Source: a virus. Taken from it: a stretch of 64,000 nucleotides of DNA. This document shows, in pieces, positions 1 through 59,211 of the stretch; position 1 is the stretch's first letter, and each line of letters opens with the position of its first letter. The notes under the pieces were generated by a model. It worked only from the letters and a program-made list of their open reading frames with translations. It was not told the origin of the DNA and searched no databases. Where the stretch lies: UHGV virus genome UHGV-0277504; one strand, 5' to 3'. Both the position numbers and the translations under genes were made by a program.

Positions 1-826
1 CTAAGACTAATTTAAATAACTTACTAAAGTCATCACTCACTTTATGAAGCTCTTCATACGTATCTGTATCTAAGTGAGCATACCTACGTAAATGTCTTTC
101 ATGATTACCTTCTAATAATTCTACATTGTCTAAGTTATGGATAAGTTCTAAATAATCAAAAGTTTCTTTAGGTTCTAAACCTCTATCAAAATAATCTCCT
201 ACAAAAATAAATAATTCATTAGGGTGGTCTACAATGTAGTTGTAACTAGCAAATTCATTTAAAGCTGTGAAACAAGAATGTACATCACCGATAACATGAA
301 TTTTATCATAATGATTTACTTCCATAAAATCTTTATCCCACTCAAGAGAACTTAATACTTCTTCAGGTTTTAATTCTTTTGCAACACTAGGAATATGTTC
401 ATGTTGTAGTCTTTCATAAATATTCTCAATAACTTCTACAGGAACTTGTTTTAATTTTTCCCTTTGGTTATTACGTTCAATTAATGTATCTAAGTCTTCT
501 TCTAAGGTTACTACATAAACACGATAACCGTATACTTTAGCTAACTTCTCATATCGTTTAATTAACTTACCTGTAGAGTGTGTAGCATCAATTACAGTAA
601 ATTCACCATTACTCATACGATTTTCTAAAATTTCAAATAATGTTTTCCAAACTAGATTATCTTTATCTTGAGTAATCGCTATTCTACCTTCTTCATTATA
701 GATAGGTGAACCGAATTGTAATCTTAAAGTGTCTGGACTTAATGTGTAATTTTCTAGTCCTTTCTCTTTAATAAAAGTAGATTTACCTACACCTGGTACA
801 CCTCTCATTAATAATAATTGTTTCAT
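1..826 (-). CDS. P-loop kinase fused to a calcineurin-like metallophosphatase (polynucleotide kinase-phosphatase-like). C-terminal part lies beyond the left edge of the window.
   Basis: Minus-strand ORF starts ATG at 826 (MKQLLLMRGVPGVGKST = Walker A). Downstream I read IGDVHSCF...GDYFDRG...EGNHE, which are metallophosphoesterase motifs I-III. No stop before position 1. Confidence 0.6.
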   Translation of the reverse strand, partial: MKQLLLMRGVPGVGKSTFIKEKGLENYTLSPDTLRLQFGSPIYNEEGRIAITQDKDNLVWKTLFEILENRMSNGEFTVIDATHSTGKLIKRYEKLAKVYGYRVYVVTLEEDLDTLIERNNQREKLKQVPVEVIENIYERLQHEHIPSVAKELKPEEVLSSLEWDKDFMEVNHYDKIHVIGDVHSCFTALNEFASYNYIVDHPNELFIFVGDYFDRGLEPKETFDYLELIHNLDNVELLEGNHERHLRRYAHLDTDTYEELHKVSDDFSKLFKLVL

Positions 827-843
827 AATTACCTCTCCTTTTA

Positions 844-1107
844 TTATTTAATACTAATAAATTCTATACTGTTTAAAGGTACCCAAACATCGTCTTCTGT
901 TGAATTACTTGCAAAAAATAGTGAAAATGTATCAGCGTCACAGTTTTTTAACAACTTAATAAGACTATCTCTCTCTTCAATTGAAACATTAATATCCATA
1001 TATTTCCCACTTTTTAGAGCTACTGTGACTTTATATTGTTTTTCTTCTTTAAAATTTTCCATATTATTCATTGAAATATCTCCTTTATTTTTTGATATAT
1101 ACATCAT
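844..1107 (-). CDS. hypothetical protein (87 aa)
   Basis: ORF track. Minus strand, co-oriented with neighbours. Confidence 0.4.
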   Translation of the reverse strand: MMYISKNKGDISMNNMENFKEEKQYKVTVALKSGKYMDINVSIEERDSLIKLLKNCDADTFSLFFASNSTEDDVWVPLNSIEFISIK

Positions 1108-1432
1108 ATTTAGTGTCTAATTCTCTATGACCTGTTATGAAATAAATTTTACTTTTCTTTGATACTGTATATGTTGTTTTCTTTATATAACTTTTATTAC
1201 TCTCATGTGCTTTTACGTCAACAGAAGATACTGATGCTATTTCATTGAATTGTTCTGCTGAAATTACTGATACATTTTTATCTTTTAAAGCTACTTCTTT
1301 AGGTAAAATAATAGTTACTCCTATTAGTAAAATACCTATAAATCCTAAAAATTCAAAACTTTTTTTTCTCTTTTTTATCCCTACGTACCATGATACTACT
1401 GTTAGAACTAAAATAATAAAATAAAAAATCAT
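1085..1432 (-). CDS. hypothetical membrane protein (two hydrophobic helices)
   Basis: ORF track. N-terminal MIFYFIILVLTVVSWYVGI and GFIGILLIGVTIIL segments. Confidence 0.4.
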   Translation of the reverse strand: MIFYFIILVLTVVSWYVGIKKRKKSFEFLGFIGILLIGVTIILPKEVALKDKNVSVISAEQFNEIASVSSVDVKAHESNKSYIKKTTYTVSKKSKIYFITGHRELDTKYDVYIKK

Positions 1433-1485
1433 AATTTACCTCCTTTAACTTAACTATAAACTATAATAACTTTTTTGTCAAGTAA

Positions 1486-2055
1486 TTATTTAAATTCTGA
1501 TAAATCTTTATGTACTTCGGTAGGTTCTAGGTAGTATTTTTTAGCTGTTTTAGTTATGCCTATTAGTTTATCATTTGTGTTATCTTTATCTACAATCAAA
1601 CTATTAATTTGCTCTTGTATAATATTTTTCGTATTAGGGTTCTTTGTTTTAATTTTACTTATTTCTTTTTCATAAATTTTAATTTGAATATCATTACGTT
1701 TTTTGATTAAAGGTCTAACTTCTTTATTTAACTTACGTTTAATAAAATCACTAATATCATCTCTAGTATCCTTTATAGATTCCCAATCAGCTTCATTATC
1801 ACTCATAATAGTAATAATATTTAAGTGTTTATCAATAACAAGTTTATGCTCTTTAAATACATAAACTTCTCGACCCTTTTCTTGTTGTGTGACATAAGTA
1901 GCTTTATTTAAAGCTTTGGCTACCCACTCTTTTGCTTTTTCACGTGATGAATTTTCTACCCTCATTAAAAATCTTTCATAAGCATGGTTAGTTATATTCA
2001 CATGCTTACTAAGTATAGGTTTTTTTCTTTCCACTATATTTAGCATGTTTAACAT
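1486..2055 (-). CDS. hypothetical protein (189 aa). True start probably the ATG at 2046, which sits 9 nt after an AAGGAG.
   Basis: ORF track. RBS AAGGAG upstream. Promoter-like TTGACA-17-TATCAT at 2077-2105. Confidence 0.5.
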   Translation of the reverse strand: MLNMLNIVERKKPILSKHVNITNHAYERFLMRVENSSREKAKEWVAKALNKATYVTQQEKGREVYVFKEHKLVIDKHLNIITIMSDNEADWESIKDTRDDISDFIKRKLNKEVRPLIKKRNDIQIKIYEKEISKIKTKNPNTKNIIQEQINSLIVDKDNTNDKLIGITKTAKKYYLEPTEVHKDLSEFK

Positions 2056-2076
2056 CTCCTTATTTGTTATGTCTTA

Positions 2077-2105
2077 ATGATACTATAATTTATATTAGAT
2101 GTCAA
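2077..2105 (-). promoter_or_regulatory. sigma-70-like promoter (TTGACA, 17-nt spacer, TATCAT)
   Basis: Read on the minus strand: -35 at 2105..2100, -10 at 2082..2077. Confidence 0.4.
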
Positions 2106-2110
2106 TACTT

Positions 2111-2147
2111 TTTATAAAAAAAGAAGTGTAGTTTTATACTACACTTC
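2111..2147 (-). terminator. rho-independent terminator whose hairpin overlaps the stop codon of the 2139..2462 gene
   Basis: GAAGTGTAGT-loop-ACTACACTTC stem (2123-2147) followed on the minus strand by UUUUUUUAUAAA. Confidence 0.6.
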
Positions 2148-2462
2148 ATCTACTACGTTTTGTGCTTCTTTAAACATTGTATCTTCTAAGTTATAAATCT
2201 CACTTAAAGTAAATTGCAATGTGTCACTAATTCTAGATAGTGCAATTCTTTCAGTAACTTTAATATTTAATTTAGTAAAATGTTGTTTTACTAGTCCGTT
2301 ATCTGTTTCTAATACCGTATCTCCATTAACTTTAATTACAAATTCGTTATTATCTTTGAGTAGTCGTAATGAACCTACATCAAAAGATTCTAACAATTTA
2401 ACAATACTATTTAAAATACTTAATTCTGATTCTTTTAATACTGATAATTTTTCATTATTCAT
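2139..2462 (-). CDS. hypothetical protein (107 aa)
   Basis: ORF track. Confidence 0.5.
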   Translation of the reverse strand: MNNEKLSVLKESELSILNSIVKLLESFDVGSLRLLKDNNEFVIKVNGDTVLETDNGLVKQHFTKLNIKVTERIALSRISDTLQFTLSEIYNLEDTMFKEAQNVVDEV

Positions 2463-2465
2463 ATA

Positions 2466-2966
2466 TTAATTCACTCCTTCTTTGTAATGAATTGAATAGC
2501 CTTCTACTTGAGATAATAAGAATTCTAAATCTACAGTTGAGTCATGTTCTTTAAACTCGATTAAAAATGTATTATTTCTATCACTTTTAAATGCATGTTT
2601 GAATTTATTAATCTCATTTTCTAAACTATAAACATCATTTTTATTTACTTTAATAACTTTACCACTCTTCAAGTTGATAACGAGTTCGGTTGGTCTTTTA
2701 ATGATGTCAGCATATGTTTCTATTTCTCTCTTTTGTTTTTCGTGATACTGAATTACTAACGTTAAATCAGAACCTTTTAGACCTTCCTTATTAAAGTTAG
2801 CATTTAAGTCATTACCATTAGATAATGTGACATGATTGTCTAGTTTTCTACTTTCTCTAATAATTAAGTCCTCATCTTGTAAATGAATAATGATACTTCC
2901 TTTACGTACTTCATAATTATATCCATACTGGCTTAACTTATCTTCAATTAAATCTTGATACAACAT
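2466..2966 (-). CDS. hypothetical protein (166 aa)
   Basis: ORF track. ATG at 2966. Confidence 0.5.
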   Translation of the reverse strand: MLYQDLIEDKLSQYGYNYEVRKGSIIIHLQDEDLIIRESRKLDNHVTLSNGNDLNANFNKEGLKGSDLTLVIQYHEKQKREIETYADIIKRPTELVINLKSGKVIKVNKNDVYSLENEINKFKHAFKSDRNNTFLIEFKEHDSTVDLEFLLSQVEGYSIHYKEGVN

Positions 2967-2979
2967 TATTTTTTCAGTT

Positions 2980-3006
2980 CCTTTCTTATAAGAAAAACAA
3001 GAAAGG
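2980..3006 (-). ncRNA. stem-loop immediately 3' of the tnpB-like gene; candidate right-end / omega-RNA structural element rather than a terminator
   Basis: CCTTTCTT...AAGAAAGG 8-bp stem. On the minus strand it is not followed by a U-tract. Confidence 0.25.
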
Positions 3007-3026
3007 TTTATATTAAGGTTGATAAA

Positions 3027-4259
3027 CTATATGTTTACCCTTATTAATAATGGTTTACTACAAACCTCTACAAGGTTTGAGAATAACTTCTCATTCCATG
3101 CTTCTTGTTTTTCTAAATATTTTCTTAATATATTTAAACTACCATTTAAGTCTGCATTAATTAACTTTCCTTCTTTACTCTTATACAATCCTCTTTTAAC
3201 TCTTTTACCAGAGAATGTAACTATATTCTTTTTAGAATCCCATATAGGTATTTCATCTAAATCAAGAAAACTAGATTTACTAGTATAAGATTCTTCCTGT
3301 AGAATGATATTGATTCCTTTTTCTTTACATTTATAAGTAAGTATTTGTATAAGTGTATAAAATGGAATTTGAATAAAAGTCTGTTTACTAGATTTTCTCA
3401 TTGTTGTGTCTTGTTTCCACCCTTTGTTATAGCCTATGACTAAGGTATTAACTTGGTTTGAAACTAGTTGATTCACAACATAATGAGTAGACTTATGAAA
3501 GTAATCTTTTACTTTATTCATTCTTTTCCTGTGAATACTACATAGTCTATGACTAGACTTTTGTCTATTCAATTTCCAAAGCAACTTTTTGTTTCTTGCT
3601 AATAACTTATTATAATAAACATTCATGCTTTTAATTGGTTTACCATTAATAATAAATGGAGTAAATACGTTAGATGATACAGTCATTAAGTTATTAATTC
3701 CTAAATCTATACTAGCATATCTACCATTATCTTTTTTCTTTTCTTTTATAAGTTTATTATACCCTATCTCAAAAACAATATGATTACCTTTAGGAATAAT
3801 CCTAACAAATTGAACTTCTTCTTTAGTTAAGTTTGTTTTAATAAAAATATTTGTTTTTGATAAGTGGATATAGCCTTTACGTTTAACAAAAGAAATAGCT
3901 TTCTTTTCGTAATGTACAATTTGTTTTCCATTCTCAGTATCTAAATATTTAGGTATTCTTGCAAAATACCCTTTCCTTCTTAAATTGAAAAAAGATTTAA
4001 AATTTTTATCTACTAACCTTTGTGTACATTTAGATACTTTAGCAGGCAAAGCTCTATAGTCTGTATTATTAGAATGAGTAAACTGTTTATTAACATCATA
4101 ATACCTTAGATACTTTTTATTTTTAAAGTAATACTGTCTTACTGCATAAAGTGTAGCATTATAAAGGTTTTTACTTAAAAAACATAAGTTATCTGCTTCT
4201 TTATATCTATTATCTTGTGTTGTTATTTGATGTTGTTCTACTCTAGTTTCATACTTCAT
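3027..4259 (-). CDS. tnpB: TnpB-like RuvC nuclease (IS200/IS605 OrfB family), a divergent paralogue lacking the zinc finger
   Basis: 410 aa. RuvC-I SIDLGINNL, RuvC-II ILQEESYTSK, RuvC-III INADLNGSLNI. The usual CxxC...CxxC between RuvC-II and RuvC-III is replaced by FSGKRVKRGLYKSKEGK. Confidence 0.7.
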   Translation of the reverse strand: MKYETRVEQHQITTQDNRYKEADNLCFLSKNLYNATLYAVRQYYFKNKKYLRYYDVNKQFTHSNNTDYRALPAKVSKCTQRLVDKNFKSFFNLRRKGYFARIPKYLDTENGKQIVHYEKKAISFVKRKGYIHLSKTNIFIKTNLTKEEVQFVRIIPKGNHIVFEIGYNKLIKEKKKDNGRYASIDLGINNLMTVSSNVFTPFIINGKPIKSMNVYYNKLLARNKKLLWKLNRQKSSHRLCSIHRKRMNKVKDYFHKSTHYVVNQLVSNQVNTLVIGYNKGWKQDTTMRKSSKQTFIQIPFYTLIQILTYKCKEKGINIILQEESYTSKSSFLDLDEIPIWDSKKNIVTFSGKRVKRGLYKSKEGKLINADLNGSLNILRKYLEKQEAWNEKLFSNLVEVCSKPLLIRVNI

Positions 4260-4306
4260 TTTTCTAAATTTTTACTTTCCTTATTTAATTCAGACTTTTT
4301 TAACAT
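4256..4306 (-). CDS. 16-codon upstream ORF (MLKKSELNKESKNLEK) translationally coupled to tnpB-like via an ATGA overlap
   Basis: Strong AAGGAG RBS 8 nt upstream. Its stop TGA overlaps the tnpB ATG. Confidence 0.35.
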   Translation of the reverse strand: MLKKSELNKESKNLEK

Positions 4307-4331
4307 AATACTTATCTCCTTTCTTATTTAT

Positions 4332-4360
4332 AGTATAGCATAAACTAAGAAAAAAGACAA
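4332..4360 (-). promoter_or_regulatory. promoter TTGTCT-17-TATACT driving the uORF and tnpB-like gene
   Basis: Minus strand: -35 at 4360..4355, -10 at 4337..4332, exact 17-nt spacer. Confidence 0.4.
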
Positions 4361-4384
4361 GTATTTATTTGTTTTTTTTACAGT

Positions 4385-4747
4385 TTATTTAAACTGATTT
4401 TCCACCTTTTTCTTTATTAAATTATCTATATCAGGTTCATTAAATGATTTAATAATGTATCTACCTTTTTTGTTAAAAATAACATCAAAGAAACCATCAT
4501 CTTGTAACCTAATAACTGCTTCAATATTAAACTGCTTTAACTTCTTAAATATTTCTGTTGTCATAGGAGCCTCAAAAACAAAAACTACATCTTTATTTTT
4601 TTGTTTATTAACATGTTTTTTATTGAAGTTTGTAATACTACCATAACATAATTTATTTTTCTTGTCAATACCTTTAAAGTATTTTTTCATAGAATCATTT
4701 AAGTATGGTTCTTCTTGTTTTTTATACGGAAATGCTACTATAATCAT
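4385..4747 (-). CDS. hypothetical protein (120 aa)
   Basis: ORF track. Confidence 0.45.
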   Translation of the reverse strand: MIIVAFPYKKQEEPYLNDSMKKYFKGIDKKNKLCYGSITNFNKKHVNKQKNKDVVFVFEAPMTTEIFKKLKQFNIEAVIRLQDDGFFDVIFNKKGRYIIKSFNEPDIDNLIKKKVENQFK

Positions 4748-5025
4748 CTTCTATATCCTTTCAAATATAATATCTTATGAAAATACTCTATTGCTCTGTG
4801 TGCTTTAGCTATTGTTGTAGCGTACTCTAATAATTCATTTTCTGATAGAGGTTTTTCTGTATCTCTTTTTATATCTGCTACTAAGTTTACTTTATCTAAA
4901 CCATCATCATAAATAACAGGAGCATATTCTAAATCACAATCTACTGTAGCTATTATTTGCTCTCCTGCTTTTTCTACTTTCAATCTAAACTCTCTATAGT
5001 AATCTTCAAACACAACTTCACTCAT
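4744..5025 (-). CDS. hypothetical protein (93 aa)
   Basis: ORF track. 4-nt overlap with the downstream gene. Confidence 0.45.
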   Translation of the reverse strand: MSEVVFEDYYREFRLKVEKAGEQIIATVDCDLEYAPVIYDDGLDKVNLVADIKRDTEKPLSENELLEYATTIAKAHRAIEYFHKILYLKGYRR

Positions 5026-5200
5026 CTGTATACCTTCTCCTTAAATCAATATATCCTGACTTTTCTCTAATATGTTTTAATCGTTGTAGTTTCTGTTCTC
5101 TTGTCAGGTTAGACCTATACGGTTCTGATTTTTTGTTTTTAAATCTTTTTTTAGTATTCGTATCTTTACTTTCTTGTTGCATCTTCTCTAAGAAATTCAT
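5018..5200 (-). CDS. hypothetical small basic protein (60 aa)
   Basis: ORF track. K/R-rich. Confidence 0.3.
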   Translation of the reverse strand: MNFLEKMQQESKDTNTKKRFKNKKSEPYRSNLTREQKLQRLKHIREKSGYIDLRRRYTDE

Positions 5201-5336
5201 AACAAACCTCCTCTTTTGTTATAGTAACATAAAAGCAAAAAACAGTCAATACTTTTTAGTATCGACTGCTTAAAAAAAGGATAATTCCTATAGCTATGAA
5301 TATAACTACTACCAAAAAACTCACGGTATCCCTCCT

Positions 5337-5720
5337 CTATTTTACTTTTTCTCCTTTAGGTACGAATCTATATATGTGTACTCGGTTACCGTCATCATCT
5401 TTTGAGTATACTCTAATGAGTGTAAATTCTTTAGCTTCTTTAAATCTACTAGTTTTAAACACGGTTGTATCTACACTATTATCTGTTGTTCTCCCAGGAA
5501 TATACGTAGGTAAGTCTTCTGTGAAATAGACTTTATTGTCTTTAATATGGTCTTTTGTGAAATCACCTATTTCTTCTACTTTCTCTCCTTTAACTTCTGA
5601 AGACTGTTTTGTAAAGTGTTCCGTATCTTTACCTTGAATGTTAATTGTTGTAATGTAAATACTCATAGAAAGAATTAAAATAATAATAGCTACAATATAA
5701 CCTTTATTTAATCTATCCAT
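5337..5720 (-). CDS. hypothetical membrane-anchored/secreted protein (127 aa)
   Basis: N-terminal hydrophobic segment YIVAIIILILSMSIYITTI. Confidence 0.45.
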   Translation of the reverse strand: MDRLNKGYIVAIIILILSMSIYITTINIQGKDTEHFTKQSSEVKGEKVEEIGDFTKDHIKDNKVYFTEDLPTYIPGRTTDNSVDTTVFKTSRFKEAKEFTLIRVYSKDDDGNRVHIYRFVPKGEKVK

Positions 5721-5784
5721 TTCTACTTATTCCCTTCTATAATAAAATAGCTTTCTCTTATGTAATATAAGAGAAAGCACAAAC

Positions 5785-6486
5785 TTAAATACTATTCATA
5801 ATAAATACACATTTATCTACAAGAGGACAATAAACCATACTCTCAGAATCATCTAACATATCTTTTAATTTAAGATAATGCTTAAGATAACTATCAGGAT
5901 TAGCTAAATCTTTATACCTAACTAAGCAATCATCAATTTTAAGTTCTATATCTTTTTTACTTACGATTTCTAATTGAGTTACTTCTTCACTAGAAGTTAA
6001 TATATAACCTTTCTCTATAACTTCATCTGATACATCTTCAACTTTTACATTATTTTTAATATCTTCCACTAGTTGATACTGGTCGTAATTGTAATCATCA
6101 GATTTAATTCTAAATAAAGGTTCTATTACCCTAGCTCTTTCAAGAATACTAATTGGTGCACTGTTTTTATGTTTATTATATAGGTACTCATTTTCTGTTA
6201 TTCTTTCTTTTGATAACCCAATATAATGACCTGTTGGTGTTCCAAATTTCTCTTCTAAATCTGGAGTTACAGTAGCAATCATAAGCGTATCATAATTAAC
6301 TTCAGTACCTATTACTTTGTAATTACTTACTACATTTTCTAAACCTTCTAAATCTAATAAGGAATGTTTAAGCTCTTCTAATGTATAACCTGATTCTATA
6401 TTCTTTATTTGTGTATTTTCTTCATTATTAGGAGAACCATAATGTTCTTTATTCCTCATCTCATTTAATTTATCTGAAAAACTCAT
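5785..6486 (-). CDS. hypothetical protein (233 aa)
   Basis: ORF track. Confidence 0.5.
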   Translation of the reverse strand: MSFSDKLNEMRNKEHYGSPNNEENTQIKNIESGYTLEELKHSLLDLEGLENVVSNYKVIGTEVNYDTLMIATVTPDLEEKFGTPTGHYIGLSKERITENEYLYNKHKNSAPISILERARVIEPLFRIKSDDYNYDQYQLVEDIKNNVKVEDVSDEVIEKGYILTSSEEVTQLEIVSKKDIELKIDDCLVRYKDLANPDSYLKHYLKLKDMLDDSESMVYCPLVDKCVFIMNSI

Positions 6487-6518
6487 ATGTTACACACCTA
6501 CAATTCTACTACAATTTC

Positions 6519-6959
6519 TTATTCCTCTTGTTCATCATTAAGTGCTTCTTCTTTAGAACCTGTTTTTCTCTCTACATTATATAAGTCTAAAATATAGTAC
6601 AAACCATTTTTATGAATATTATACTTCTTATAAATATCTTCTACATTCATAAAATGATAATCTTTGATAAGTTGTTTTGTTTTTTCTACATCATTTAATA
6701 CGTGAGCTACTCTCTCAGAAACTCTAGATTTCTTGTTTCTTTTCTCTACTTTATAACTGTTAATTACTGAGTAAATCATACCTGTACTTACTTTAACTGC
6801 TTTTGAGATTTCTTTAAACGGTGCTCCTTCTTCATATAAAGTAACGATTTGTTGCTCTTTAATTGTGTTGAATCTTTTATCTTTCTTTAAAGGTGTAAAT
6901 TCTTTTTTATTTTCTGTACCTAAAATCTTCTCTTCTTCTTTATTTAATGAAATAAACAT
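6519..6959 (-). CDS. hypothetical protein with a predicted helix-turn-helix
   Basis: IVTLYEEGAPFKEISKAVKVSTGMIYSVI resembles an HTH. Confidence 0.4.
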   Translation of the reverse strand: MFISLNKEEEKILGTENKKEFTPLKKDKRFNTIKEQQIVTLYEEGAPFKEISKAVKVSTGMIYSVINSYKVEKRNKKSRVSERVAHVLNDVEKTKQLIKDYHFMNVEDIYKKYNIHKNGLYYILDLYNVERKTGSKEEALNDEQEE

Positions 6960-7001
6960 ATAAAAAACTCCTTTTGTTTTGATACTTATATTATACTACA
7001 C

Positions 7002-7490
7002 TTAATCATTATTGTCAATATCTTTTACTAAAGTTAACTCACTTTCTTTAAATACCTTATCGTATTCACCTGTTAGCTTATAAAAGTAACTGTTGTTATC
7101 AGTTAGTACTTCTGTAATCCTAGCAACATCTTTACTTGAATTTTCATTTAATAGATTAAATCGTTCATACTCTACAATATCATTAACTTTAAATTTATTG
7201 TCTGTTACATTAAATTCTTCATCTAAGTAAACATTAAATGTAATAAGAGCATTAATAGAAATATTATAAGGCACCCAATACCTATTATAAAAAGTTGTTT
7301 CTTTTCTAATATCTCTTGATATTTCTGTCATCTGGTGTCTACCAGGATTAAGTCTTACAAGGATTGTTCCTTGGTCTCCTTGTTCTAGTCTTAATACTTT
7401 ACCATCTACTAGGTAATGAATAATATCTGTTAAATTTTCAATTGGTAGTGCTTCTTTTACTGGTTGTATATTAATCGGATTGACTTCCAT
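7002..7490 (-). CDS. hypothetical protein (162 aa)
   Basis: ORF track. Confidence 0.5.
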   Translation of the reverse strand: MEVNPINIQPVKEALPIENLTDIIHYLVDGKVLRLEQGDQGTILVRLNPGRHQMTEISRDIRKETTFYNRYWVPYNISINALITFNVYLDEEFNVTDNKFKVNDIVEYERFNLLNENSSKDVARITEVLTDNNSYFYKLTGEYDKVFKESELTLVKDIDNND

Positions 7491-7514
7491 AATTTACCTC
7501 ACTCACTTTACACA

Positions 7515-8240
7515 TTAAATAGATATTCCAGCTTGTTCCATAGCTTCTTTAAATTTTTTGTCTTCTTCATTTAAATCTAGACTTTGATAGAATTCTTTTT
7601 CCTTTTCTTCTAATCTTTGTAGTACTTGTTCGTGTTGCTCCTCAGGAATAAATTCTAATAATACTTCTGTCATAGCTGATTCTCTAGCTGTTTGTTTAAG
7701 CATAAGCTCTTTTAACCCAATATAACTTAAGCCTTTTAATTCCCCATTAGTTATCTTATTCTTTGTTTCTATTGCTCTTATCATTAAAGCTGGGTCTAAT
7801 GTATCTACCCATTTTAAACCTTCTCTACCTTTATAAATAATTTCATCTAATATCTGAGCGTCATTATATATTTTCTCAGTATAACTTTTAGCTTCTTCAA
7901 AACTAGGTGCAATTTCTTGACCTTTATAACTCACCTCTTTATCAGATATATCATCTACAGAGGTTTTCTTTCTCTTATCTATAAGCTCTCCTAAATCCCA
8001 ACCATTTTGAATAGCTTCTCTTCTTTTGTTTTTATATCTTGATAAAGATGGTTTAGATATGTCTAAGTCATACTCTTTACATATATCTATAATATCATCG
8101 AAACTCATATCTTCATCTAAAGCATTATCTACTTTAGTTCTTAATAATTTATTGTGATATAGCTTAGAGAGTATACTCTCTTTTTTTTCAACAACTTTAA
8201 TAGTGTCTTTTTTATTTTTTAAATTTTTCTTTCTAGCCAT
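7515..8240 (-). CDS. hypothetical protein (241 aa)
   Basis: ORF track. Confidence 0.5.
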   Translation of the reverse strand: MARKKNLKNKKDTIKVVEKKESILSKLYHNKLLRTKVDNALDEDMSFDDIIDICKEYDLDISKPSLSRYKNKRREAIQNGWDLGELIDKRKKTSVDDISDKEVSYKGQEIAPSFEEAKSYTEKIYNDAQILDEIIYKGREGLKWVDTLDPALMIRAIETKNKITNGELKGLSYIGLKELMLKQTARESAMTEVLLEFIPEEQHEQVLQRLEEKEKEFYQSLDLNEEDKKFKEAMEQAGISI

Positions 8241-8577
8241 AATATAATATTTCCTTTCTAATGTAAAAGTATGTAATTAGTTACATATATGAAACGTAGT
8301 TACAATTAATAAAACAATCCCTTTACATCAACTTATTTCAGTCCACATTATATAATATATCACAATTTCTGTTATTATTTTATATCATTATAAGTATTTA
8401 TAAAAAATATATACAATTTTGTAGTAAATTTTATTTGTAAAACACTTTAATTTAGCTATATTTAATTGAAATACAGAGTTGTTTTTCATAAAAATTCATT
8501 TTATGAATATTATTTACCTGCATTTTTTACTACTACTTACTTTACTTTTTAATAAAAGAAACTATTTAAATATACAC
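8241..8577. promoter_or_regulatory. 337-bp AT-rich non-coding region (promoter/leader region) containing a 9-bp inverted repeat, TTCATAAAA-ATTCA-TTTTATGAA, at about 8484-8506
   Basis: No ORF on either strand. It is the longest intergenic gap in the window. Confidence 0.4.
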
Positions 8578-9078
8578 TTATTCTGCATAAATTCTCTCTG
8601 CTTCTGCTTTCATTTCCTCTACAAATGAATCATCTTCATAAGCTTCTTTAGTAAAGAAAACGATTGGCTCTTCAGCTACACCATTTTGATATTCATAAAC
8701 ATCATCCATAGCTACTTTAGAATACTTTTGATAGTAGTTAACCATGAATGTAGGTAAGTTAGCTAAAACATTATCTCCAAATAGACCAAATAAAACTACA
8801 ATAAGACTATTCCCTAATAAAGGAAAAGCAAAAATTAAATTATAAAGTGCATAAATAAATACAAAAAACCCAATAACTCTAAGGAATGGAATACTAAATA
8901 CAATTCCTGAAATCATAAACCAGTTAATAAATCTTACTCCTGCATCTACTGAAGCTGTTCTCAATGCTTCAGTTCCTTCAAACGCTTCTTTACCATTCAA
9001 CATTAATGAATCTAATACTCTTAATCCTTTAATGCCTAAAAACCAAATTACTCCTAAAATAATAATTCCTAATAACAT
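8578..9078 (-). CDS. hypothetical integral membrane protein (166 aa)
   Basis: Multiple hydrophobic helices. Confidence 0.5.
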   Translation of the reverse strand: MLLGIIILGVIWFLGIKGLRVLDSLMLNGKEAFEGTEALRTASVDAGVRFINWFMISGIVFSIPFLRVIGFFVFIYALYNLIFAFPLLGNSLIVVLFGLFGDNVLANLPTFMVNYYQKYSKVAMDDVYEYQNGVAEEPIVFFTKEAYEDDSFVEEMKAEAERIYAE

Positions 9079-9161
9079 AATAACAAAATCCCTTCTCTTT
9101 TTTTATTTATTGTTTCTATAGTTATACTATAATACAAAGAGAGGGGATTGTCAACAGTTTT

Positions 9162-10007
9162 TTAGAAAAAAATTGATAATTTTTTATTATTTTTTAAGGT
9201 AATTTCAAAAGTGTACCTGTTATCTTCTTTAATAACTTTAGAATAAGATATATCATTAGTTTTAAATGATAAAAATGATTGACCGCAAGCTATAGAATAT
9301 CTACTAGTATTATCTGATACAATAAATATTCCTGTTTCATTGGTATTATATAAATTATAAGTAATAGAGCCATCATCAAAGAATACACAAGGTATTTCTT
9401 TATTGATAATTCTTCTCTCTAATAGGAAATCAAGTAGTTTTTCCGTATCTACTTTTGTTAATTTATCTTTCTTTGATAGCATACCTAATAATGTTTGTCC
9501 TTCATACTCTTTAAGTGTTGTCAATAAGTAAACCTCGTGTTTAAAGTCTATAATTTCTTCTTCAATTTTATATAATTTTAATTTAATATCTTTAGCAAGT
9601 GTAATTGTAGCTTCTGAAATTTCAGGCTCAATAAATAAGTTTTCTACATCAATAGCTTTAACTTGACTTACTTGAGTTCCTTTTAAAATCATATCTGTAA
9701 GAAGTCCAGGGTCTTTTACACCTTGGTCTATTTGGTCTACTTTAACACTTCCTAATCCTGAAGATTCTAATGATTTATTGTATCTAATAATATTAGGTTT
9801 ATCGTTATCATGAACAATTAATCTATTGATAAATTCAAATCTATTACCTTTTTCAAATGTTACGTCTTCAATGTAAGGCTCAGGTATAACACCAATAGGA
9901 TAATCTTTATCATGATAAGTAATACCTAGTAGTTCAATTTCTCCGTTTTTCATTTTATTATATAATGTCTCAGGTTTAATCTTTTTAAATGTGTTGGTTG
10001 TTAACAT
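9162..10007 (-). CDS. hypothetical protein (281 aa)
   Basis: ORF track. Confidence 0.5.
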   Translation of the reverse strand: MLTTNTFKKIKPETLYNKMKNGEIELLGITYHDKDYPIGVIPEPYIEDVTFEKGNRFEFINRLIVHDNDKPNIIRYNKSLESSGLGSVKVDQIDQGVKDPGLLTDMILKGTQVSQVKAIDVENLFIEPEISEATITLAKDIKLKLYKIEEEIIDFKHEVYLLTTLKEYEGQTLLGMLSKKDKLTKVDTEKLLDFLLERRIINKEIPCVFFDDGSITYNLYNTNETGIFIVSDNTSRYSIACGQSFLSFKTNDISYSKVIKEDNRYTFEITLKNNKKLSIFF

Positions 10008-10438
10008 TAAGAATCCTTCCTTTTATTTGTTTGTTTTCTAATTTTAAATATAAAAATTAGATGTGTACTTTTAAATGTTCTTTGCTCTCTAATACTTAGT
10101 TTTCCTATTAGTAAACCACCTTTATGAACATAATAAAGTCTATCAGTATGTGTTATTTCTTGGTTTTTATATTTCTGTTTTAAGCTTAACATATTTTCAT
10201 TTATACCTGTGGCTTTACTAATTAAATCAATACCATATTTTTTTTGTAATTTAACATCAGTTGAAGATATATTATTAAACTGTTTAGTAAATAGTAATTT
10301 ATACATAGTTGTTGATTTATCTTTGTTAGGGTCTCTATGATTGTAAAACTTTGTATTCCCTGGTGATGGTGTAGGTGCAAAGTTAACTGGCATAAGTTTT
10401 GCTTTTCTTCTTTTATTCATTGATAGACTCAACTCCAT
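10007..10438 (-). CDS. hypothetical protein (143 aa)
   Basis: ORF track. Confidence 0.4.
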   Translation of the reverse strand: MELSLSMNKRRKAKLMPVNFAPTPSPGNTKFYNHRDPNKDKSTTMYKLLFTKQFNNISSTDVKLQKKYGIDLISKATGINENMLSLKQKYKNQEITHTDRLYYVHKGGLLIGKLSIREQRTFKSTHLIFIFKIRKQTNKRKDS

Positions 10439-11162
10439 TTTTTACTACATTAAAGAAGTCTTCTTCAATAACTTTCCATCTATCATTATAACCATAAATA
10501 ACTACCCTTGTAAATAATTTATAGGTATTTTCTTCTCCTAAGTATTTTATTATTTGATTAATAACTGAGAATTTTTTCATTCTTTTAGATTGTGTTGTTT
10601 GAGAGAAGTTACCTGCTCCGCCTGTGTATCTACCATTCTTATTATAGTTATATCCTGAACGGAAAGTAAAAGGGTCTCTTATTTGTTTTAACATTATTAA
10701 TAAGTTATGTTTCCATAGAATATTAAGTGTATGGTATGGGCTTCTCTGAGGTGATATAGTTGCCTTTTTGTATTTACCTACAATAGGTTTACCTTTAACA
10801 TTTATATAGCTTATAATACCTACATGGTGGTGTTTATATCGTTTTAGTATTTGTTCTACTTTAGGTACATGCTTATCATGACACATAATATATACGTATT
10901 TACATACTTGACTATAATAATGTAGTTGTTTATTAAGTCGTTGTGTAGAATCTCTCTCTGTTTTTATCTCGATACCCATTACAGTACCATTTCTATCTAA
11001 TACTAGACAATCAGTTCTACATTTACCTTGACAGATTACTTTCTCATTAAATATAGCAATGTCCTTAACATCACTTGTAATATCATCATCATAAAAAAGG
11101 TGTTGTTTAGTTTTTATTAGGTCTTTTATATCTTTCTCATAAAATTTAACTTCAGAAGACAT
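10413..11162 (-). CDS. hypothetical protein, possible PD-(D/E)xK-fold nuclease
   Basis: LVLDRNGTVMGIEIKTERD fits the D...E-x-K pattern. Cys/His-rich. Confidence 0.35.
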   Translation of the reverse strand: MSSEVKFYEKDIKDLIKTKQHLFYDDDITSDVKDIAIFNEKVICQGKCRTDCLVLDRNGTVMGIEIKTERDSTQRLNKQLHYYSQVCKYVYIMCHDKHVPKVEQILKRYKHHHVGIISYINVKGKPIVGKYKKATISPQRSPYHTLNILWKHNLLIMLKQIRDPFTFRSGYNYNKNGRYTGGAGNFSQTTQSKRMKKFSVINQIIKYLGEENTYKLFTRVVIYGYNDRWKVIEEDFFNVVKNGVESINE

Positions 11163-11691
11163 TTAATCTATCCTCTTTCGTTTTTTTATAATATTCTACT
11201 ACACTCTCTAAAGGTGTATAGGAATTAAACCATTTAATGTTAGATAAGCCAATAAAAACACCTGTATATTTACCATGCTCAACAACTATACCATCTTTTT
11301 GTGTCATTTTTTTATTATCTGGTTGTCTTTCAAAGAACCCTTTTCCAGTCTCACCTGTTACTGTGTCTCTACCTAACGGAATCACAGTAGCTATGAATAT
11401 AGGTTCTTCTTCTACTTTCTTAGGTGTAACTTTCTTAGGTAATCTGCTTTTAATAATATTACTAATTGTTGTTCCTCCAGGTATTGTTTTTCTATATTCT
11501 TCAATTCTATATTTTTTAACTGGATTATCTATATTATTAACATCATGTACATTATATACAATAACATATTCTGATAAATCTTCTTCTATGTGTTCTACTA
11601 TATAAACAGGTTTACCATCAAAATAATAAGCTCCTATACTTACCCTCATTTTTATTGATGGACTATCAAATGCACTAAAATTAAAATCCAT
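11152..11691 (-). CDS. hypothetical protein (179 aa)
   Basis: ORF track. Confidence 0.45.
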   Translation of the reverse strand: MDFNFSAFDSPSIKMRVSIGAYYFDGKPVYIVEHIEEDLSEYVIVYNVHDVNNIDNPVKKYRIEEYRKTIPGGTTISNIIKSRLPKKVTPKKVEEEPIFIATVIPLGRDTVTGETGKGFFERQPDNKKMTQKDGIVVEHGKYTGVFIGLSNIKWFNSYTPLESVVEYYKKTKEDRLNVF

Positions 11692-11755
11692 TCTTCATCA
11701 GTTCCTTCTTTTCTTTTTATTATACCATATAATTAAAGTAGAAGCAAATATGCCT

Positions 11756-12094
11756 CTACTTTTTCTTAATTAACTTAGCTTGAATAAAAGACATAATCAA
11801 GGTAGTAATTAATCCTACAATAAGGTATCCTACTATAAATATAACACAATATAGTATTAAGAACCAAATATTAGTAGGTTGAATAAAATTATCAGAAAAA
11901 AAGCTAATTACTAATAAAAATATAAAACCAAGTAACCAATTAAGTAACGGGTAGTAATAATCAAAGTTATTAAAAGCTGGATAGCCAGCTTTTACTCTTT
12001 CTTTTTCAACCGACCATTGTTGAAATAAAGTAGCGACTGTATTTATTGTAACTAATATCATAGTAGATATTAGTATAGATAAAACATAATTCAA
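11756..12094 (-). CDS. hypothetical membrane protein (112 aa)
   Basis: Hydrophobic helices. Confidence 0.45.
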   Translation of the reverse strand: MNYVLSILISTMILVTINTVATLFQQWSVEKERVKAGYPAFNNFDYYYPLLNWLLGFIFLLVISFFSDNFIQPTNIWFLILYCVIFIVGYLIVGLITTLIMSFIQAKLIKKK

Positions 12095-12106
12095 AATTAA
12101 TCACTC

Positions 12107-13372
12107 CTAATCTAAGAACACTGTTTTAATGTCTATATTCTTAGTCCCCTCTTCTAACACTAATATTTGTTGAGAAGGTTTTGTCTTACTTAAGTGTAAT
12201 TCTTTAGCATAGTTATTATAGCCCATTGGAGAGCTGGCAACAATATGAAATCTGTTATAATCTTCTTGTGTTATTCTATGATGATGTACATGTCCTGTAA
12301 TAAGCAAATCAATATGTGAATCTGTAATAAATTTAGGAATATGATTACCTTTTCCTTTAAGTCCATCACCATGATTAACTACAATTTTTTTACCTAAAAT
12401 TGTATCTCTAATATTATAAATATCTTCCCTATTATCAATAAGCTCAATATCTTTTAATACGCCTTGTTGTTTTAACATAAGTAGCATATCTAGTACTACA
12501 AACGCTACATTATCATTATAAACTTTTTGATTTTTATTACCTTGCATACGGTCATGATTACCACCAATAATACCGAATGTTAATTTACCTGGTACATATT
12601 GTCTAATATTATTTAAAATATCTATAATTAATCTAGTTCCTTTAGAAATTTGTTCAGCTAAAGTAAATTCTGTCTCAAATGCTTGGTTAACATCTCTCAT
12701 AGATATATGTTCTACTAAATCACCTACAAAGTATACTGTAACATCTGTAATATCTTTACTTTCAATATCTTCAATAACTGTCTCTAAAAATTGGTTAAGT
12801 CTACGTTTTAGTATATTAAAGTCGTAACCACCATTAGTATAATCAGATGTCAAAGCACCAATATGAAAATCTGACAGTAAAACTACCATTGATTTTTCTT
12901 TTTCTGTATTTACATAATTATAAAACTGACTTTCTAATAATGTATTCATAGGTTGTAAATCTCTAATTATAGATTTCTTTAAATCTTCCATTAAGATATT
13001 AATATGTGCACCTTGTTTAGCATACTTACGAAATTCTCTTTGTTGTGATAGTGTACGCTCATTCTCAGTAACATATGTTGAAACAGTTTTAAAATAATCG
13101 TTACCTGTAAATACTTTTCTATCATCTACACTTCTTAAGTCACCTAAACCAAGTTCTCCAGATAAAGCTGAGTTTTTAAGACTGTTTAAATACTCATTCT
13201 CTCTAACTGTGTCTACAATATCAACAAATTCTGAAGAATTTACTTTATCTAATCCTAATTCTTTAATAATTTTATTAAATTTAGTTAAAACTATTTTACC
13301 TTCTTCTTTTCCTAGAACTCCGATAACAATAGCATATAACTCTTCTACTGTATTAAATCTACTTTCTGTCAT
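12107..13372 (-). CDS. calcineurin-like metallophosphoesterase (421 aa)
   Basis: LSDFHIG, VGDLVEH, GGNHD and GHVHHH motifs. Confidence 0.65.
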   Translation of the reverse strand: MTESRFNTVEELYAIVIGVLGKEEGKIVLTKFNKIIKELGLDKVNSSEFVDIVDTVRENEYLNSLKNSALSGELGLGDLRSVDDRKVFTGNDYFKTVSTYVTENERTLSQQREFRKYAKQGAHINILMEDLKKSIIRDLQPMNTLLESQFYNYVNTEKEKSMVVLLSDFHIGALTSDYTNGGYDFNILKRRLNQFLETVIEDIESKDITDVTVYFVGDLVEHISMRDVNQAFETEFTLAEQISKGTRLIIDILNNIRQYVPGKLTFGIIGGNHDRMQGNKNQKVYNDNVAFVVLDMLLMLKQQGVLKDIELIDNREDIYNIRDTILGKKIVVNHGDGLKGKGNHIPKFITDSHIDLLITGHVHHHRITQEDYNRFHIVASSPMGYNNYAKELHLSKTKPSQQILVLEEGTKNIDIKTVFLD

Positions 13373-19244: not shown

Positions 19245-20483
19245 TTAAATGTCTAGATTTAAACCTTTTAAAACATCATCAACATTTTTTGGCTGTTCCA
19301 TTTTAGGAGGTTCTTGATATTGTTGTTGATTTTGTTGTACGTTTTGTTGTTGAGGTGGTTGTTGCTGACTTCCAGTGTCGAAAGGTACTTGAGAATCATT
19401 AATAGTATTCTCATCAAAATTCTCCCAAGGATTATTTCCTTGTTGTGGTTGCTGTGGTGCTTGTTGTACCTGATTAAACTGTTGCTGTTGAGTTGGTTGT
19501 TGAGTATTCTGTTGCGATTGAGTATTAATAGTATTCCAATCATTCTGTGGTACTTGTTGTGTGTTTTGTTGTGGTTGATTACTTAAATTACCTGGTAACT
19601 GTTGCTCTACATGCTGTTGTGATGGTTGTGACTGCTGTGTTTGTTGTACTGGTTGTTGAGGTTGGCTAGGTGCATCCCCTAATGTATTTGTATCTCTATT
19701 AAAAGTAAAATTGTCTGTTTCTAAAGGTGTTCCATTTACTTTATTAATTAAGAAGTTAACAAGATTAGGGTTCACCTCTTCTGTAGGTTGAGCTAACTTA
19801 TCTAAGTCTGAAGATAACTCTCTCCAGTTAGAAGGTAAGTTACCGAATTGGTATTGTGGATTAGAGTATACTTGAACATACCAATTTGTTTTATCATTCT
19901 CTTTTGCTTTCTTAAACATTACAGGATAAGCAACGTCTTCAGAAATAAAACTAAATTTAGCTGAAGGAGAAGGATTAAACATTTCATCTCCTAATTGACT
20001 AGCTAAAGCATTATATGCTGTAATAGGAATTTCTAAAGGTGAAATCTTAGGATTACCTGAGTTATCTACTACAGGTTGTAAAGTACCACCATTATTAATA
20101 TACTCAATAACTTCAATATAATATCTATTTGACGGTCTATTAGGGAATCGACTAAAAGGAACCTTATTAGCTATCCAAGATTCAATAAATGGGTCAATAA
20201 CTGACTCTCCTGATGTAGCTGGTAGTGTTAAACCTACGAATTTTTGCTCATTGTTTTTATTGTTGAAGTTAATACCTGTGTTTCTAAATTTCTTATAAAA
20301 TTCTAAAGAACCTTCTTTTTTAGGTGGTAAAATACGTACTAAAATTGAATCTTTAGTTGAACCATCTTTTTGCTTACCTAATCGAATAACTGGATTTTTA
20401 GGTGTATAGTATTCCACCTCATTATTGTTATTATTTTGTGTTTCTTTTGCTTGTTGGTTAATAAATTCTGTAAATGCTGACAT
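19245..20483 (-). CDS. putative ssDNA-binding protein with a long Q/P/N-rich low-complexity linker
   Basis: 412 aa. C-terminal half is QQPVQQTQQSQPSQQ...-type low complexity ending in an acidic/hydrophobic tip (DDVLKGLNLDI). Position between polA and recA. Function inferred, not shown. Confidence 0.35.
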   Translation of the reverse strand: MSAFTEFINQQAKETQNNNNNEVEYYTPKNPVIRLGKQKDGSTKDSILVRILPPKKEGSLEFYKKFRNTGINFNNKNNEQKFVGLTLPATSGESVIDPFIESWIANKVPFSRFPNRPSNRYYIEVIEYINNGGTLQPVVDNSGNPKISPLEIPITAYNALASQLGDEMFNPSPSAKFSFISEDVAYPVMFKKAKENDKTNWYVQVYSNPQYQFGNLPSNWRELSSDLDKLAQPTEEVNPNLVNFLINKVNGTPLETDNFTFNRDTNTLGDAPSQPQQPVQQTQQSQPSQQHVEQQLPGNLSNQPQQNTQQVPQNDWNTINTQSQQNTQQPTQQQQFNQVQQAPQQPQQGNNPWENFDENTINDSQVPFDTGSQQQPPQQQNVQQNQQQYQEPPKMEQPKNVDDVLKGLNLDI

Positions 20484-58506: not shown

Positions 58507-59211
58507 CTATTCAAACCTTGCAAATATACCTGTCTCATCAGATTGTAATACAAATGTTATTGATTCCTCTACAGATTCAATCTCTACAGAAAACTTACCC
58601 CAAAAGCATTTACCTTTCAAAGTCCAATCTATAGTATTAACATTTTTAACCCTACTATCTGATAATAAGGTTCTTATTATTTCTAATTCAATAAGTACTG
58701 CTGTTTCTGGTATATTTTTATCAAATAATTCATGTATATTAGAACCATAATCTGGATGTAATATTAATGAACCTTTAGGTGTAAGTAATCTCGTTTGTAA
58801 TTGTTGTTTAATATTATCTACACCTACAACTGTACTTAAATCACCTTTATTATCTTCTGTAAAATTAAGTATTTCATCACTTGTACCATGTTTATTAAAG
58901 TAGTCTTCATTAGATGTAACATTTAAGTCACTACCTAAAGCCATCTCTACTAAAATATCTCTATCTTTCTTGTTAATCTCTTTTAGTGTAGCATTAGTTA
59001 GATAAGAGTATTCAGGTATAATAATATAATCTCCTGTAGTTACTAAATGCTCAGGGTTATCTTTTTTCAACATATGGTCGTCTACAATATAGGGATATTT
59101 TAAATTATTATGCTCAATTAAATCTATCCAGTATTCTGGACTACCATAATATCTTTGAGATATTGCCTGCATAGTATCATTATACCTAACTTCATGTTTT
59201 TTAAATCTCAT
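58507..59211 (-). CDS. baseplate wedge protein (gp25/gpW-like) with an N-terminal LysM-like segment
   Basis: C-terminal GSLILHPDYGSNIHELFDKN...LIELEIIRTLL gp25-like. N-terminal HEVRYNDTMQAISQRYYG LysM-like. Confidence 0.5.
   Translation of the reverse strand: MRFKKHEVRYNDTMQAISQRYYGSPEYWIDLIEHNNLKYPYIVDDHMLKKDNPEHLVTTGDYIIIPEYSYLTNATLKEINKKDRDILVEMALGSDLNVTSNEDYFNKHGTSDEILNFTEDNKGDLSTVVGVDNIKQQLQTRLLTPKGSLILHPDYGSNIHELFDKNIPETAVLIELEIIRTLLSDSRVKNVNTIDWTLKGKCFWGKFSVEIESVEESITFVLQSDETGIFARFE

Follow-up and report, generated by a model that had tools for sequence, protein, structure and literature searches.

A 1428-bp element on the minus strand of the virus genome UHGV-0277504 carries an intact tnpB gene and the ωRNA-like scaffold of an IS607-type element, with no transposase, and we consider it probable that the locus is a selfish homing element and neither a degenerate nor a domesticated gene. 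The stretch analyzed (hereafter the window) is 64,000 nt long, has 28% GC, and comes from a virulent Staphylococcus epidermidis myovirus (Herelleviridae, Twortvirinae, Sepunavirus); its first 12 kb are ~98% identical to phages Quidividi and BE04. A preliminary description of the same DNA, made from the sequence alone, had suggested that this TnpB was degenerate or domesticated. That suggestion does not agree with the low ratio of nonsynonymous to synonymous substitution rates (dN/dS 0.10–0.12), the covarying scaffold, the presence/absence polymorphism of the element among related phages, or its relatives at other sites.

TnpB, its clade, and the RNA scaffold

The 410-aa protein scores above the curated cutoffs of the Pfam families OrfB_IS605 (PF01385; E = 1.9e-22, 80.1 bits, cutoff 30.5) and Cas12f1-like_TNB (PF07282; E = 3.8e-10, 40.2 bits, cutoff 26.3), and of the NCBIfam model guided_TnpB (NF040570; 161.6 bits, cutoff 100). 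An AlphaFold2 model, computed with 87 homologues as input, reaches a predicted local distance difference test (pLDDT) of 89.9 and a predicted template modeling score (pTM) of 0.82. Its best Foldseek matches in the Protein Data Bank (PDB) are AsCas12f (7e-17), ISDra2 TnpB (3e-14), ISFba1 TnpB (4e-14), and mimivirus Fanzor2 (9e-13), and the predicted structure has a TnpB/Cas12f-like fold (WED/REC/RuvC/TNB). The profile searches and the structure prediction, as comparisons with TnpB, Fanzor, and Cas12 models, bear out that this is a TnpB with a RuvC fold.

The active site is arranged in an unusual way. The protein contains the motifs DLGINNL (D185), QEESYTSK (E322/E323), and NADLNGSLNI (D370). 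In an alignment with ISDra2 TnpB, D185 falls on the RuvC-I motif DVGIKD (D191 in the published numbering), and a profile alignment to the window's second, canonical TnpB places D185 on IDLGLKD and D370 (NADLN) on the Asp of DRDIN. The position aligned by profile with the canonical RuvC-II Glu, i.e. the E of IIIEN in that second TnpB, holds G276 (VIGYNKGW), and a Glu is found instead at E322/E323, just before the former zinc-finger position. As such, the preliminary description was right that acidic residues persist in D-E-D order, and both Asp align with the TnpB active site, but the canonical triad is not retained, because a Gly occupies the Glu site and the Glu has been relocated to QEESYTSK. 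Among 87 aligned sequences, D370, E323, and G276 are invariant, and D185 and E322 nearly so (≥90%).

By its sequence, the protein fits the description of RuvC-II-rearranged (RIIr) TnpBs, in which the Glu is replaced by Gly and an alternative Glu is conserved (section 8 in Altae-Tran et al. 2023, PMC10691335); such an alternative Glu is a Fanzor/pro-Fanzor signature as well (Yoon et al. 2023, PMC10711439). With RIIr TnpBs (e.g. RIIr-5, "TnpB2"/pro-Fanzor-like; PMC10691335, PMC10711439) it shares the Gly at RuvC-II, the alternative Glu, and the NADxN RuvC-III motif, as well as the association with a serine-recombinase TnpA, the occurrence in viruses, and the loss of the zinc finger seen in some large branches. 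The zinc finger is dispensable in some TnpB branches, and some rearranged branches are enriched in viruses (PMC10691335). By contrast, the pro-Fanzor set of Yoon et al. (PMC10711439) was defined with an intact CxxC…CxxC, which the window's clade does not have.

The C4 zinc finger that TnpB carries between RuvC-II and RuvC-III is indeed absent, and FSGKRVKRGLYKSKEGK occupies its expected position. However, it was not lost in this copy: CxxC…CxxC occurs in none of the 87 aligned homologues and in none of ~40 further bacterial and phage relatives (down to ~34% identity), which points to an old trait of the clade. The clade consensus reads QEESYTSK[C/S/A]SF…GKRxKRGLY…INADxNGSxNI. A word-indexed search returned >7,900 homologues at E < 1e-10, many of equal length and ~55% identity. 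We found no relative of >41% identity on plasmids, and no Staphylococcus genome stands among the best 80 genome loci, hence no host source of the element was identified. The closest matches in isolate databases include a copy from a Lak megaphage (52% identity). Some phage relatives have in-frame stops in an otherwise conserved tnpA or tnpB (e.g. L101, L104, L113; IMG/VR contigs L094–L097, L113, in the region upstream of tnpB), which suggests stop-codon recoding in those phages.

Compared with its relatives, tnpB has a dN/dS of ~0.1 over synonymous divergences (dS) of up to ~0.9, and is thus not degenerate; the gene is under strong purifying selection.

At its 3′ end, tnpB overlaps an ωRNA-like scaffold of five stem-loops (Table 1). 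The 170 nt up to the right end fold with a minimum free energy of −37.6 kcal/mol (z = −3.7 vs shuffles). Seven related elements are near-invariant in DNA from within the 3′ end of tnpB to …AAGAAAGGAACTG and then diverge fully, and this divergence defines both the right end and the start of the flank-derived guide. In the alignment of the seven, 95% of cells are paired and six pairs have double changes, compared with 40–51% of cells paired in slid controls. Searches with a covariance model built from the seven recovered this structure behind tnpB in 19 loci that are more distant; a 26-sequence alignment has 93% of cells paired (~42% in slid controls) and compensatory changes in 34 of 49 pairs, counts that are inflated because it was fitted to the model structure. 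In addition, dS is halved over the last 50 tnpB codons, and the window and Quidividi elements differ at 12 positions, six of them within 3018..3034, with pairing preserved by those in the stem. On this evidence, the gene appears to have the structured, 3′-overlapping ωRNA expected of a TnpB.

An 8-bp hairpin had been placed directly after the stop codon and judged not to be a terminator. The hairpin exists and no terminator is predicted, but it starts 21 nt after the stop. Its stem sequence differs wholly between lineages, with the hairpin retained and followed by a conserved AACTGTA (AACTGAA in the window), and we interpret it as the last stem of the conserved, covarying scaffold. A long-range pairing proposed by RNAalifold (GAAAAACAAGAA/CTTTCTTGTTTTTC) was rejected; 2 relatives (L119 and L120) break it but keep the local terminal hairpin. 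No Rfam family matches positions 2800..4500 at E ≤ 1; this includes the group I intron that would mark an IStron, and the left end spans only ~140 nt. From what is known of TnpB biology (PMC10711439; 10.1101/2023.11.20.567912), the flank-derived segment that follows the scaffold would be used as guide.

A scaffold with full score (188.9 bits, all 172 model positions) is also found in Staphylococcus phage PG-2021_27 (MZ417326.1, propagated on S. aureus Twort; record UNVERIFIED; L128 1571..1927), where it adjoins a mere 100-aa 3′ remnant of tnpB. We take that locus for an orphan right end/ωRNA or for a decayed element.

The window holds a second tnpB (Table 1), as the preliminary description had stated, and the two proteins are very different: they can be aligned at the profile level only (hhalign probability 87%, 26% identity). 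A tblastn search of the window with the 410-aa protein found no second copy, and the other TnpB surfaced only through profile and Pfam searches. The two belong to different clades and therefore look like independent insertions and not duplicates. Many Staphylococcus Herelleviridae phages encode homologues of the second TnpB (77–96% identity), and a single genome often has them at as many as 4 places; Terranova has a related copy (81%) at yet another site (L125 5714..6823). Two further open reading frames (ORFs) considered as candidate TnpBs, 19245..20483 and 12107..13372, were rejected after Pfam and NCBIfam profile tests.

Element ends, empty site, and distribution among phages

The span first given for the locus, 2967..4384, lies near the true limits of the element, which run from ~2970/2974 to 4397/4401. 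These limits rest on a comparison with phages that lack it. In Twillingate, Terranova, SEP1, and BE06, the empty site reads …AAAGGTGGAAAA joined to ATAATGTTG… (i.e. GGTGGAAAA joined to ATAATG), and the Twillingate-type junction can be written as GGTGGAAAA followed by ATAATGTTGTATC… or by ATAATGTTGTATCAAG. At the occupied site, …GGTGGAAAA is followed by TCAGTTTAAATAAACTG, the remainder of the 1428 bp up to …GGAACTGA, and then AAAAATAATG, with AAAA as an ambiguity or a duplication. The junctions are identical in Quidividi and BE04.

In the empty genomes the flanking genes overlap (TAATG), and the element sits between the Shine-Dalgarno sequence (GGTGG) of the downstream gene and its ATG. The element itself puts AAGAAAGGA, the 3′ arm of the terminal hairpin, 12 nt upstream of this ATG, where it may act as a substitute Shine-Dalgarno. 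The insertion has also altered the tail of the upstream protein from …KKVEK to …KKVENQFK (117/118 aa to 120 aa), with the new stop in the left end (4385..4396, minus strand).

The right end reads AACTG+WA across the clade, and the two termini (TCAGTT and AACTGA) are inverted around a dinucleotide, a layout expected of a serine-recombinase crossover site. Since the right end finishes in AACTG+TA/AA, the core and the likely target-adjacent motif (TAM) would be A/T-rich. The left-end palindrome shows a compensatory change in one relative (CAGTTC..GAATTG in L003) and is possibly a former TnpA binding or crossover site. A search for CAGTT/TAGTT upstream of tnpA in distant relatives gave no common left-end boundary or TAM.

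Of the sepunavirus records, 20 have alignments that cover ≥80% of window positions 1..12000. Two of them, Quidividi and BE04, cover this region fully and carry the element, and 18 align to 88%; all four genomes of the latter type that were read (Twillingate, Terranova, SEP1, and BE06) lack the element and have the identical empty site. The comparison with related phages proposed in the preliminary description thus reveals a polymorphic element (2 of 20 occupied, four read genomes empty). Occupancy and flanks are discordant. Specifically, both flanks of the empty Twillingate hardly differ from those of the window, while the occupied Quidividi and BE04 share a different upstream haplotype, and the BE04 element is ~4% diverged (dS 0.15) despite a nearly identical downstream flank. 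This pattern fits homing with short conversion tracts, and ordinary mosaic recombination could yield it too.

Relatives with 78–87% identity lie at other gene junctions of other phage contigs, i.e. portal/protease (L004), tail-tube/sheath initiator (L117), and a third site (L003), and in all three the right end stops 4–9 nt before the next start codon. For such tnpA-less copies at several sites, TnpA supplied in trans by complete relatives (e.g. L119) and some other route are both possibilities.

Several smaller observations concern these sites. When window 1..12000 is compared with L001, L002, and L124–L127, 500-bp blocks jump from 0 to >60 mismatches (e.g. 1001–1500 and 5001–5500). In L117, the 8-bp TAGAATGA (2372..2385, 3783..3792) duplicates the ATGA stop/start overlap of the flanking tail genes, and window 59205..59215 (junction at 59211) is the orthologous empty site of that element. 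In empty phages of the BE06 type (L127), codon 2 of the downstream gene differs by a synonymous G>A (ATAATGTTaTATC, window 2956), within the predicted guide target; this could be a neutral single-nucleotide polymorphism or a mismatch that lowers targeting.

IS607 ancestry and the short reading frame upstream of tnpB

Many bacterial loci with relatives of this TnpB have an ORF of ~190–220 aa that ends at the tnpB start. All ten of the upstream ORFs tested are serine recombinases (HTH_17/MerR + Resolvase), and none is a Y1 transposase. Because the relatives lie directly downstream of a serine-recombinase tnpA, the clade is of IS607 type. The closest complete element, on a phage-like contig (L119), encodes a TnpB of 72% identity, and the start of this tnpB is overlapped by the end of a gene for a TnpA of 213 aa. 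Where its relatives have TnpA, all that the window retains is a 16-codon vestige, which makes the element a non-autonomous IS607 derivative.

The DNA of the vestigial region is too divergent from the full L119 tnpA for the deletion junctions to be mapped, so the origin of the vestige was tested at the protein level. Three tnpA-less relatives (L003, L115, and L116; 87–89% identity) have a 38-codon ORF, MIKKSELNTEYYKPGYIANLCSKLYELRSNRESRGLEK, at the position of the 16-codon ORF. Its residues 1–21 align with positions 1–21 of a TnpA hidden Markov model (HMM; consensus mvkksdlakdfyksgevakli) at E = 0.017, and it ranks 41st of 13,152 ORFs against this HMM, directly behind full-length TnpAs and a few short tnpB-adjacent ORFs. 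Its four best BLAST matches are TnpA N-termini. The C-terminal half has no match by BLAST or HMM, and, judged by eye only, its tail (CSKLYELRSN) is similar to the C-terminal end of TnpA (…SGKLYDMRQN in L119). The window sequence, MLKKSELNKE joined to SKNLEK, corresponds to the 38-codon ORF with a further 66-nt gap. Most likely, then, the 16-codon ORF is an internally deleted tnpA, in which N-terminal codons are joined to the last codons and the ancestral tnpA–tnpB overlap is kept.

The preliminary description had presented this ORF as a translationally coupled upstream reading frame. The AAGGAG and the ATGA overlap on which it relied are present, but a deleted tnpA is a better reading than a dedicated regulatory ORF. 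In 3 relatives (L004, L085, and L117) the start codon of the short ORF is lost and a 3′ remnant before tnpB is retained; the ORF is thus decaying and not conserved as a regulatory device. No good Shine-Dalgarno is found 5–10 nt upstream of the tnpB ATG in the window (AAAA; GAGG in L003), which makes reinitiation after the vestigial ORF a plausible route to translation, and it is reasonable to suppose that tnpB is probably translated by termination-reinitiation at the AUGA.

The TTGTCT-17-TATACT promoter-like site noted earlier is present (4360..4332) and is preceded by TG. In this AT-rich window, 15 such sites are found and 17.4 are expected from shuffles, i.e. there is no enrichment, and the support for a promoter is therefore its conservation in relatives (Table 1). 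It is probably the former promoter of the tnpA–tnpB operon, inside the left end. The vestige thus indicates that the translation signals of an operon (promoter-like site, Shine-Dalgarno, start codon, and AUGA overlap) can outlast the gene they served.

Table 1. Coordinates of the element, its parts, and the second tnpB (window positions)
Feature	Position	Strand	Remarks
Whole element	2970..4401	minus	1428 bp; 4-nt AAAA junction ambiguity, 2970/2974 to 4397/4401
Left flank GGTGGAAAA	4398..4406	minus	Pre-insertion Shine-Dalgarno and spacer of the downstream gene; candidate TAM region
Left-end start TCAGTTTAAATAAACTG	4381..4397	minus	CAGTT-N6-AACTG palindrome; TCAGTT is the inverse of right-end AACTGA
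Promoter-like TTGTCT-17-(TG)cTATACT	4332..4360	minus	Conserved in L003 and L004; similarly placed site before L119 tnpA
AAGGAG Shine-Dalgarno of the 16-codon ORF	4316..4321	minus	Read from sequence; kept in L003
16-codon ORF MLKKSELNKESKNLEK	4256..4306	minus	TGA overlaps tnpB ATG (ATGA 4259..4256)
tnpB coding sequence	3027..4259	minus	410 aa; D185 RuvC-I, G276, E322/E323, D370 RuvC-III; no C4 zinc finger
ωRNA-like scaffold, five stem-loops	2975..3144	minus	Overlaps last ~39 tnpB codons, ends …GGAACUG; 5′ limit approximate
Stem-loop over tnpB stop codon	3011..3049	minus	4 of 7 inner pairs covary
Terminal 8-bp hairpin CCTTTCTT/AAGAAAGG	2980..3006	minus	Last scaffold stem and right end
Predicted guide segment AAAATAATGTTGTATCAAGA	2953..2972	minus	Flank after …CUGAA; would match the empty allele in related phages
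Second, canonical TnpB	40877..41983	minus	368 aa; HTH_OrfB_IS605, OrfB_IS605, and zinc-ribbon TNB (Pfam); IIIEN Glu

A homing model and its alternatives

The most likely function of the element is RNA-guided cleavage of the empty allele during co-infection, i.e. homing. Elements of the IS605 and IS607 types have been shown to home by means of TnpB (10.1101/2023.11.20.567912), and a 2026 review regards homing into co-infecting phages as theoretically possible (PMC13565253); our search of the literature found no experimental test of TnpB homing in phages. The sequence of events that we infer, which includes nuclease activity, guide use, a TAM, translational coupling, and homing, is as follows. 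A transcript from the element's promoter would run beyond the right end, where no terminator is predicted, and TnpB would be made from this mRNA, probably via termination-reinitiation at the AUGA. TnpB would then associate with the structured 3′ portion of this read-through mRNA, whose last ~16–20 nt copy the flanking phage DNA, and this flank-derived segment (~2972..2953) would serve as guide. In an element-free sibling in the same cell, the candidate TAM (…GGAAAA) and the target are contiguous because the left and right flanks meet there, and the allele would be cut by the ribonucleoprotein. Repair by recombination from an element-bearing genome would copy the element in (homing, or marker exclusion). 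The element would avoid targeting itself because its right end (…AACTGAA) replaces the TAM.

A further step, which we put forward tentatively and consider doubtful, is that a transposase-free tnpB–ωRNA module persists in virulent staphylococcal phages solely as a free-standing RNA-guided homing endonuclease gene, passes between co-infecting phages by cleavage of the empty allele, and may reach new Shine-Dalgarno/ATG junctions independently of any transposase. The 4-bp and 8-bp repeats would then be the footprint of insertion at staggered breaks. If true, the element would be a natural case of the hitherto theoretical "non-restorative transposon homing" and would give a first functional handle on zinc-finger-less IS607 TnpBs with an A/T-type TAM.

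Several points weigh against a homing element of IS607 origin. An IS607 serine recombinase should leave only a 2-bp core. The direct repeats at the junctions, 4-bp AAAA in the window and the 8-bp TAGAATGA in L117, are predicted neither by serine-recombinase transposition nor by clean homing. The flanks suggest an A/T-rich TAM ending in WA, unlike the G-rich TAMs of characterized IS607 TnpBs. The 16-aa ORF is by itself too short for a significant match, and its tnpA origin depends on the 38-aa homologue and on synteny; the 26-sequence covariation, as said, is inflated by its fit to the model. We found no biochemically characterized member of the zinc-finger-less clade in the literature. Finally, presence/absence and mosaic flanks can also arise by ordinary sepunavirus recombination or by precise deletion.

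This last point is central to the competitor that survives best, although we judge it unlikely, namely that the locus is an inert passenger: a stranded, nonfunctional IS607 remnant, tolerated by virtue of its position at a gene junction and distributed by ordinary phage recombination and deletion. The reduction of tnpA to a vestige would agree with this, as would the unequal decay of left-end and short-ORF features among relatives, the Twort-like phage with a tnpB 3′ remnant only, and the visibly mosaic sepunavirus genomes. An inert remnant, however, should not retain a dN/dS of 0.10–0.12 over dS of up to ~0.9, or all of its catalytic positions; nor does it account for an RNA scaffold upheld by compensatory changes, even between near-identical phages, or for the same lineage at several different phage sites.

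A domesticated phage function, e.g. a TldR-like RNA-guided repressor or a weapon against host or competitor DNA, has a smaller chance still. The element lies between two phage genes in the same orientation, its right end may provide the downstream gene's Shine-Dalgarno, domesticated TnpBs exist (PMC10705468), and the carrier phage, too, would gain if siblings that lack the element were cut (marker exclusion; PMC13565253). By contrast, characterized domesticated TnpBs are nuclease-dead, while D185, E322/E323, and D370 are conserved here. The element is absent from most sepunaviruses and thus has no core phage function; its predicted guide is flanking sequence, as in mobile copies, and relatives occupy unrelated sites.

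The least probable reading, for which we see hardly any room, is a tnpB-only element of the IS1341 group (IS200/IS605 type, Y1) moved as single-stranded DNA via terminal hairpins, a type that Quidividi's annotation in GenBank implies ("IS605 OrfB transposase subunit") and that would agree with the Pfam name OrfB_IS605, the hairpins near both ends (4396..4381 and 3006..2980), and the absence of tnpA in cis, but that is at odds with the serine recombinases in all ten upstream partners (Y1 in none) and in the closest complete relative, the match of the short ORF to a serine TnpA N-terminus, a right-end hairpin that covaries with RNA-like G-U pairs, and a conserved AACTG+TA right end with termini inverted around a dinucleotide as in a serine-recombinase crossover.

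The element has parallels among known systems. With ISXfa1 (PMC10711439) and CboIStron (10.1101/2023.11.20.567912) it shares descent from a tnpA(Ser)–tnpB operon, an ωRNA over the tnpB 3′ end, a scaffold terminated by the core dinucleotide of the right end, and, by prediction, a guide taken from the flank. Unlike these two, it has a deleted tnpA, no group I intron, no zinc finger, and a virulent phage as replicon, and its right end is AACTG+TA/AA with a likely A/T-rich core and TAM (GG/TGGG in the others); homing into empty donor joints was demonstrated for them, whereas here we infer it. ISDra2 TnpB (PDB 8H1J, 8EXA) and Cas12f share the fold (Foldseek E 1e-14 to 1e-17; template modeling score ~0.6–0.7), the RuvC-I Asp, and the single-RNA guide architecture, but ISDra2, whose transposase is of the Y1 type, retains the canonical Glu (E278) together with a C4 zinc finger, and is only ~16% identical in sequence. 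As with the free-standing homing endonuclease genes of large virulent phages (T4 Seg/Mob; intronless homing), a small and probably selfish nuclease gene lies here between conserved phage genes, with polymorphism among close relatives and mosaic flanks. Seg/Mob recognition is by protein, however, while the window's element would target by RNA guide and TAM and tell self from nonself by its own presence. TldR and other nuclease-dead domesticated TnpBs (PMC10705468) also combine a TnpB scaffold with a partner RNA and have no transposase nearby; the window's element differs in its conserved catalytic residues, its mobile and polymorphic copies, and a predicted guide that equals the local flank, so the locus is not TldR-like.

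The traits of the clade are published and the gene is loosely annotated in GenBank. Homing between phages becomes directly testable through the precisely known empty site, the vestige of tnpA, the placement at specific junctions, and near-isogenic, culturable pairs (e.g. Quidividi or BE04 vs Twillingate or BE06). Public records call the tnpB gene a "transposase subunit" (to which Quidividi adds "IS605 OrfB"), yet the element has no transposase; a recent sepunavirus paper voices a general concern about phage-encoded transposases in phage therapy (PMC13152194). A very large clade that combines the absence of a zinc finger with a relocated catalytic Glu and a probable A/T-rich TAM could also serve as a source of compact genome editors.

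Two other loci of the window have annotations that touch on mobile DNA. A 146-aa ORF (6519..6959, minus strand) is annotated as "transposase domain-containing protein" in Quidividi and Twillingate; it has only subthreshold matches to HTH_23, HTH_Tnp_IS630, and HTH_7, and is therefore probably a small DNA-binding protein and no transposase. The gene for an Mre11-like metallophosphatase (12107..13372, minus strand) is annotated as intron-containing in Quidividi (L001 12831..) but not in Twillingate, and this intron is another presence/absence mobile element in these phages.

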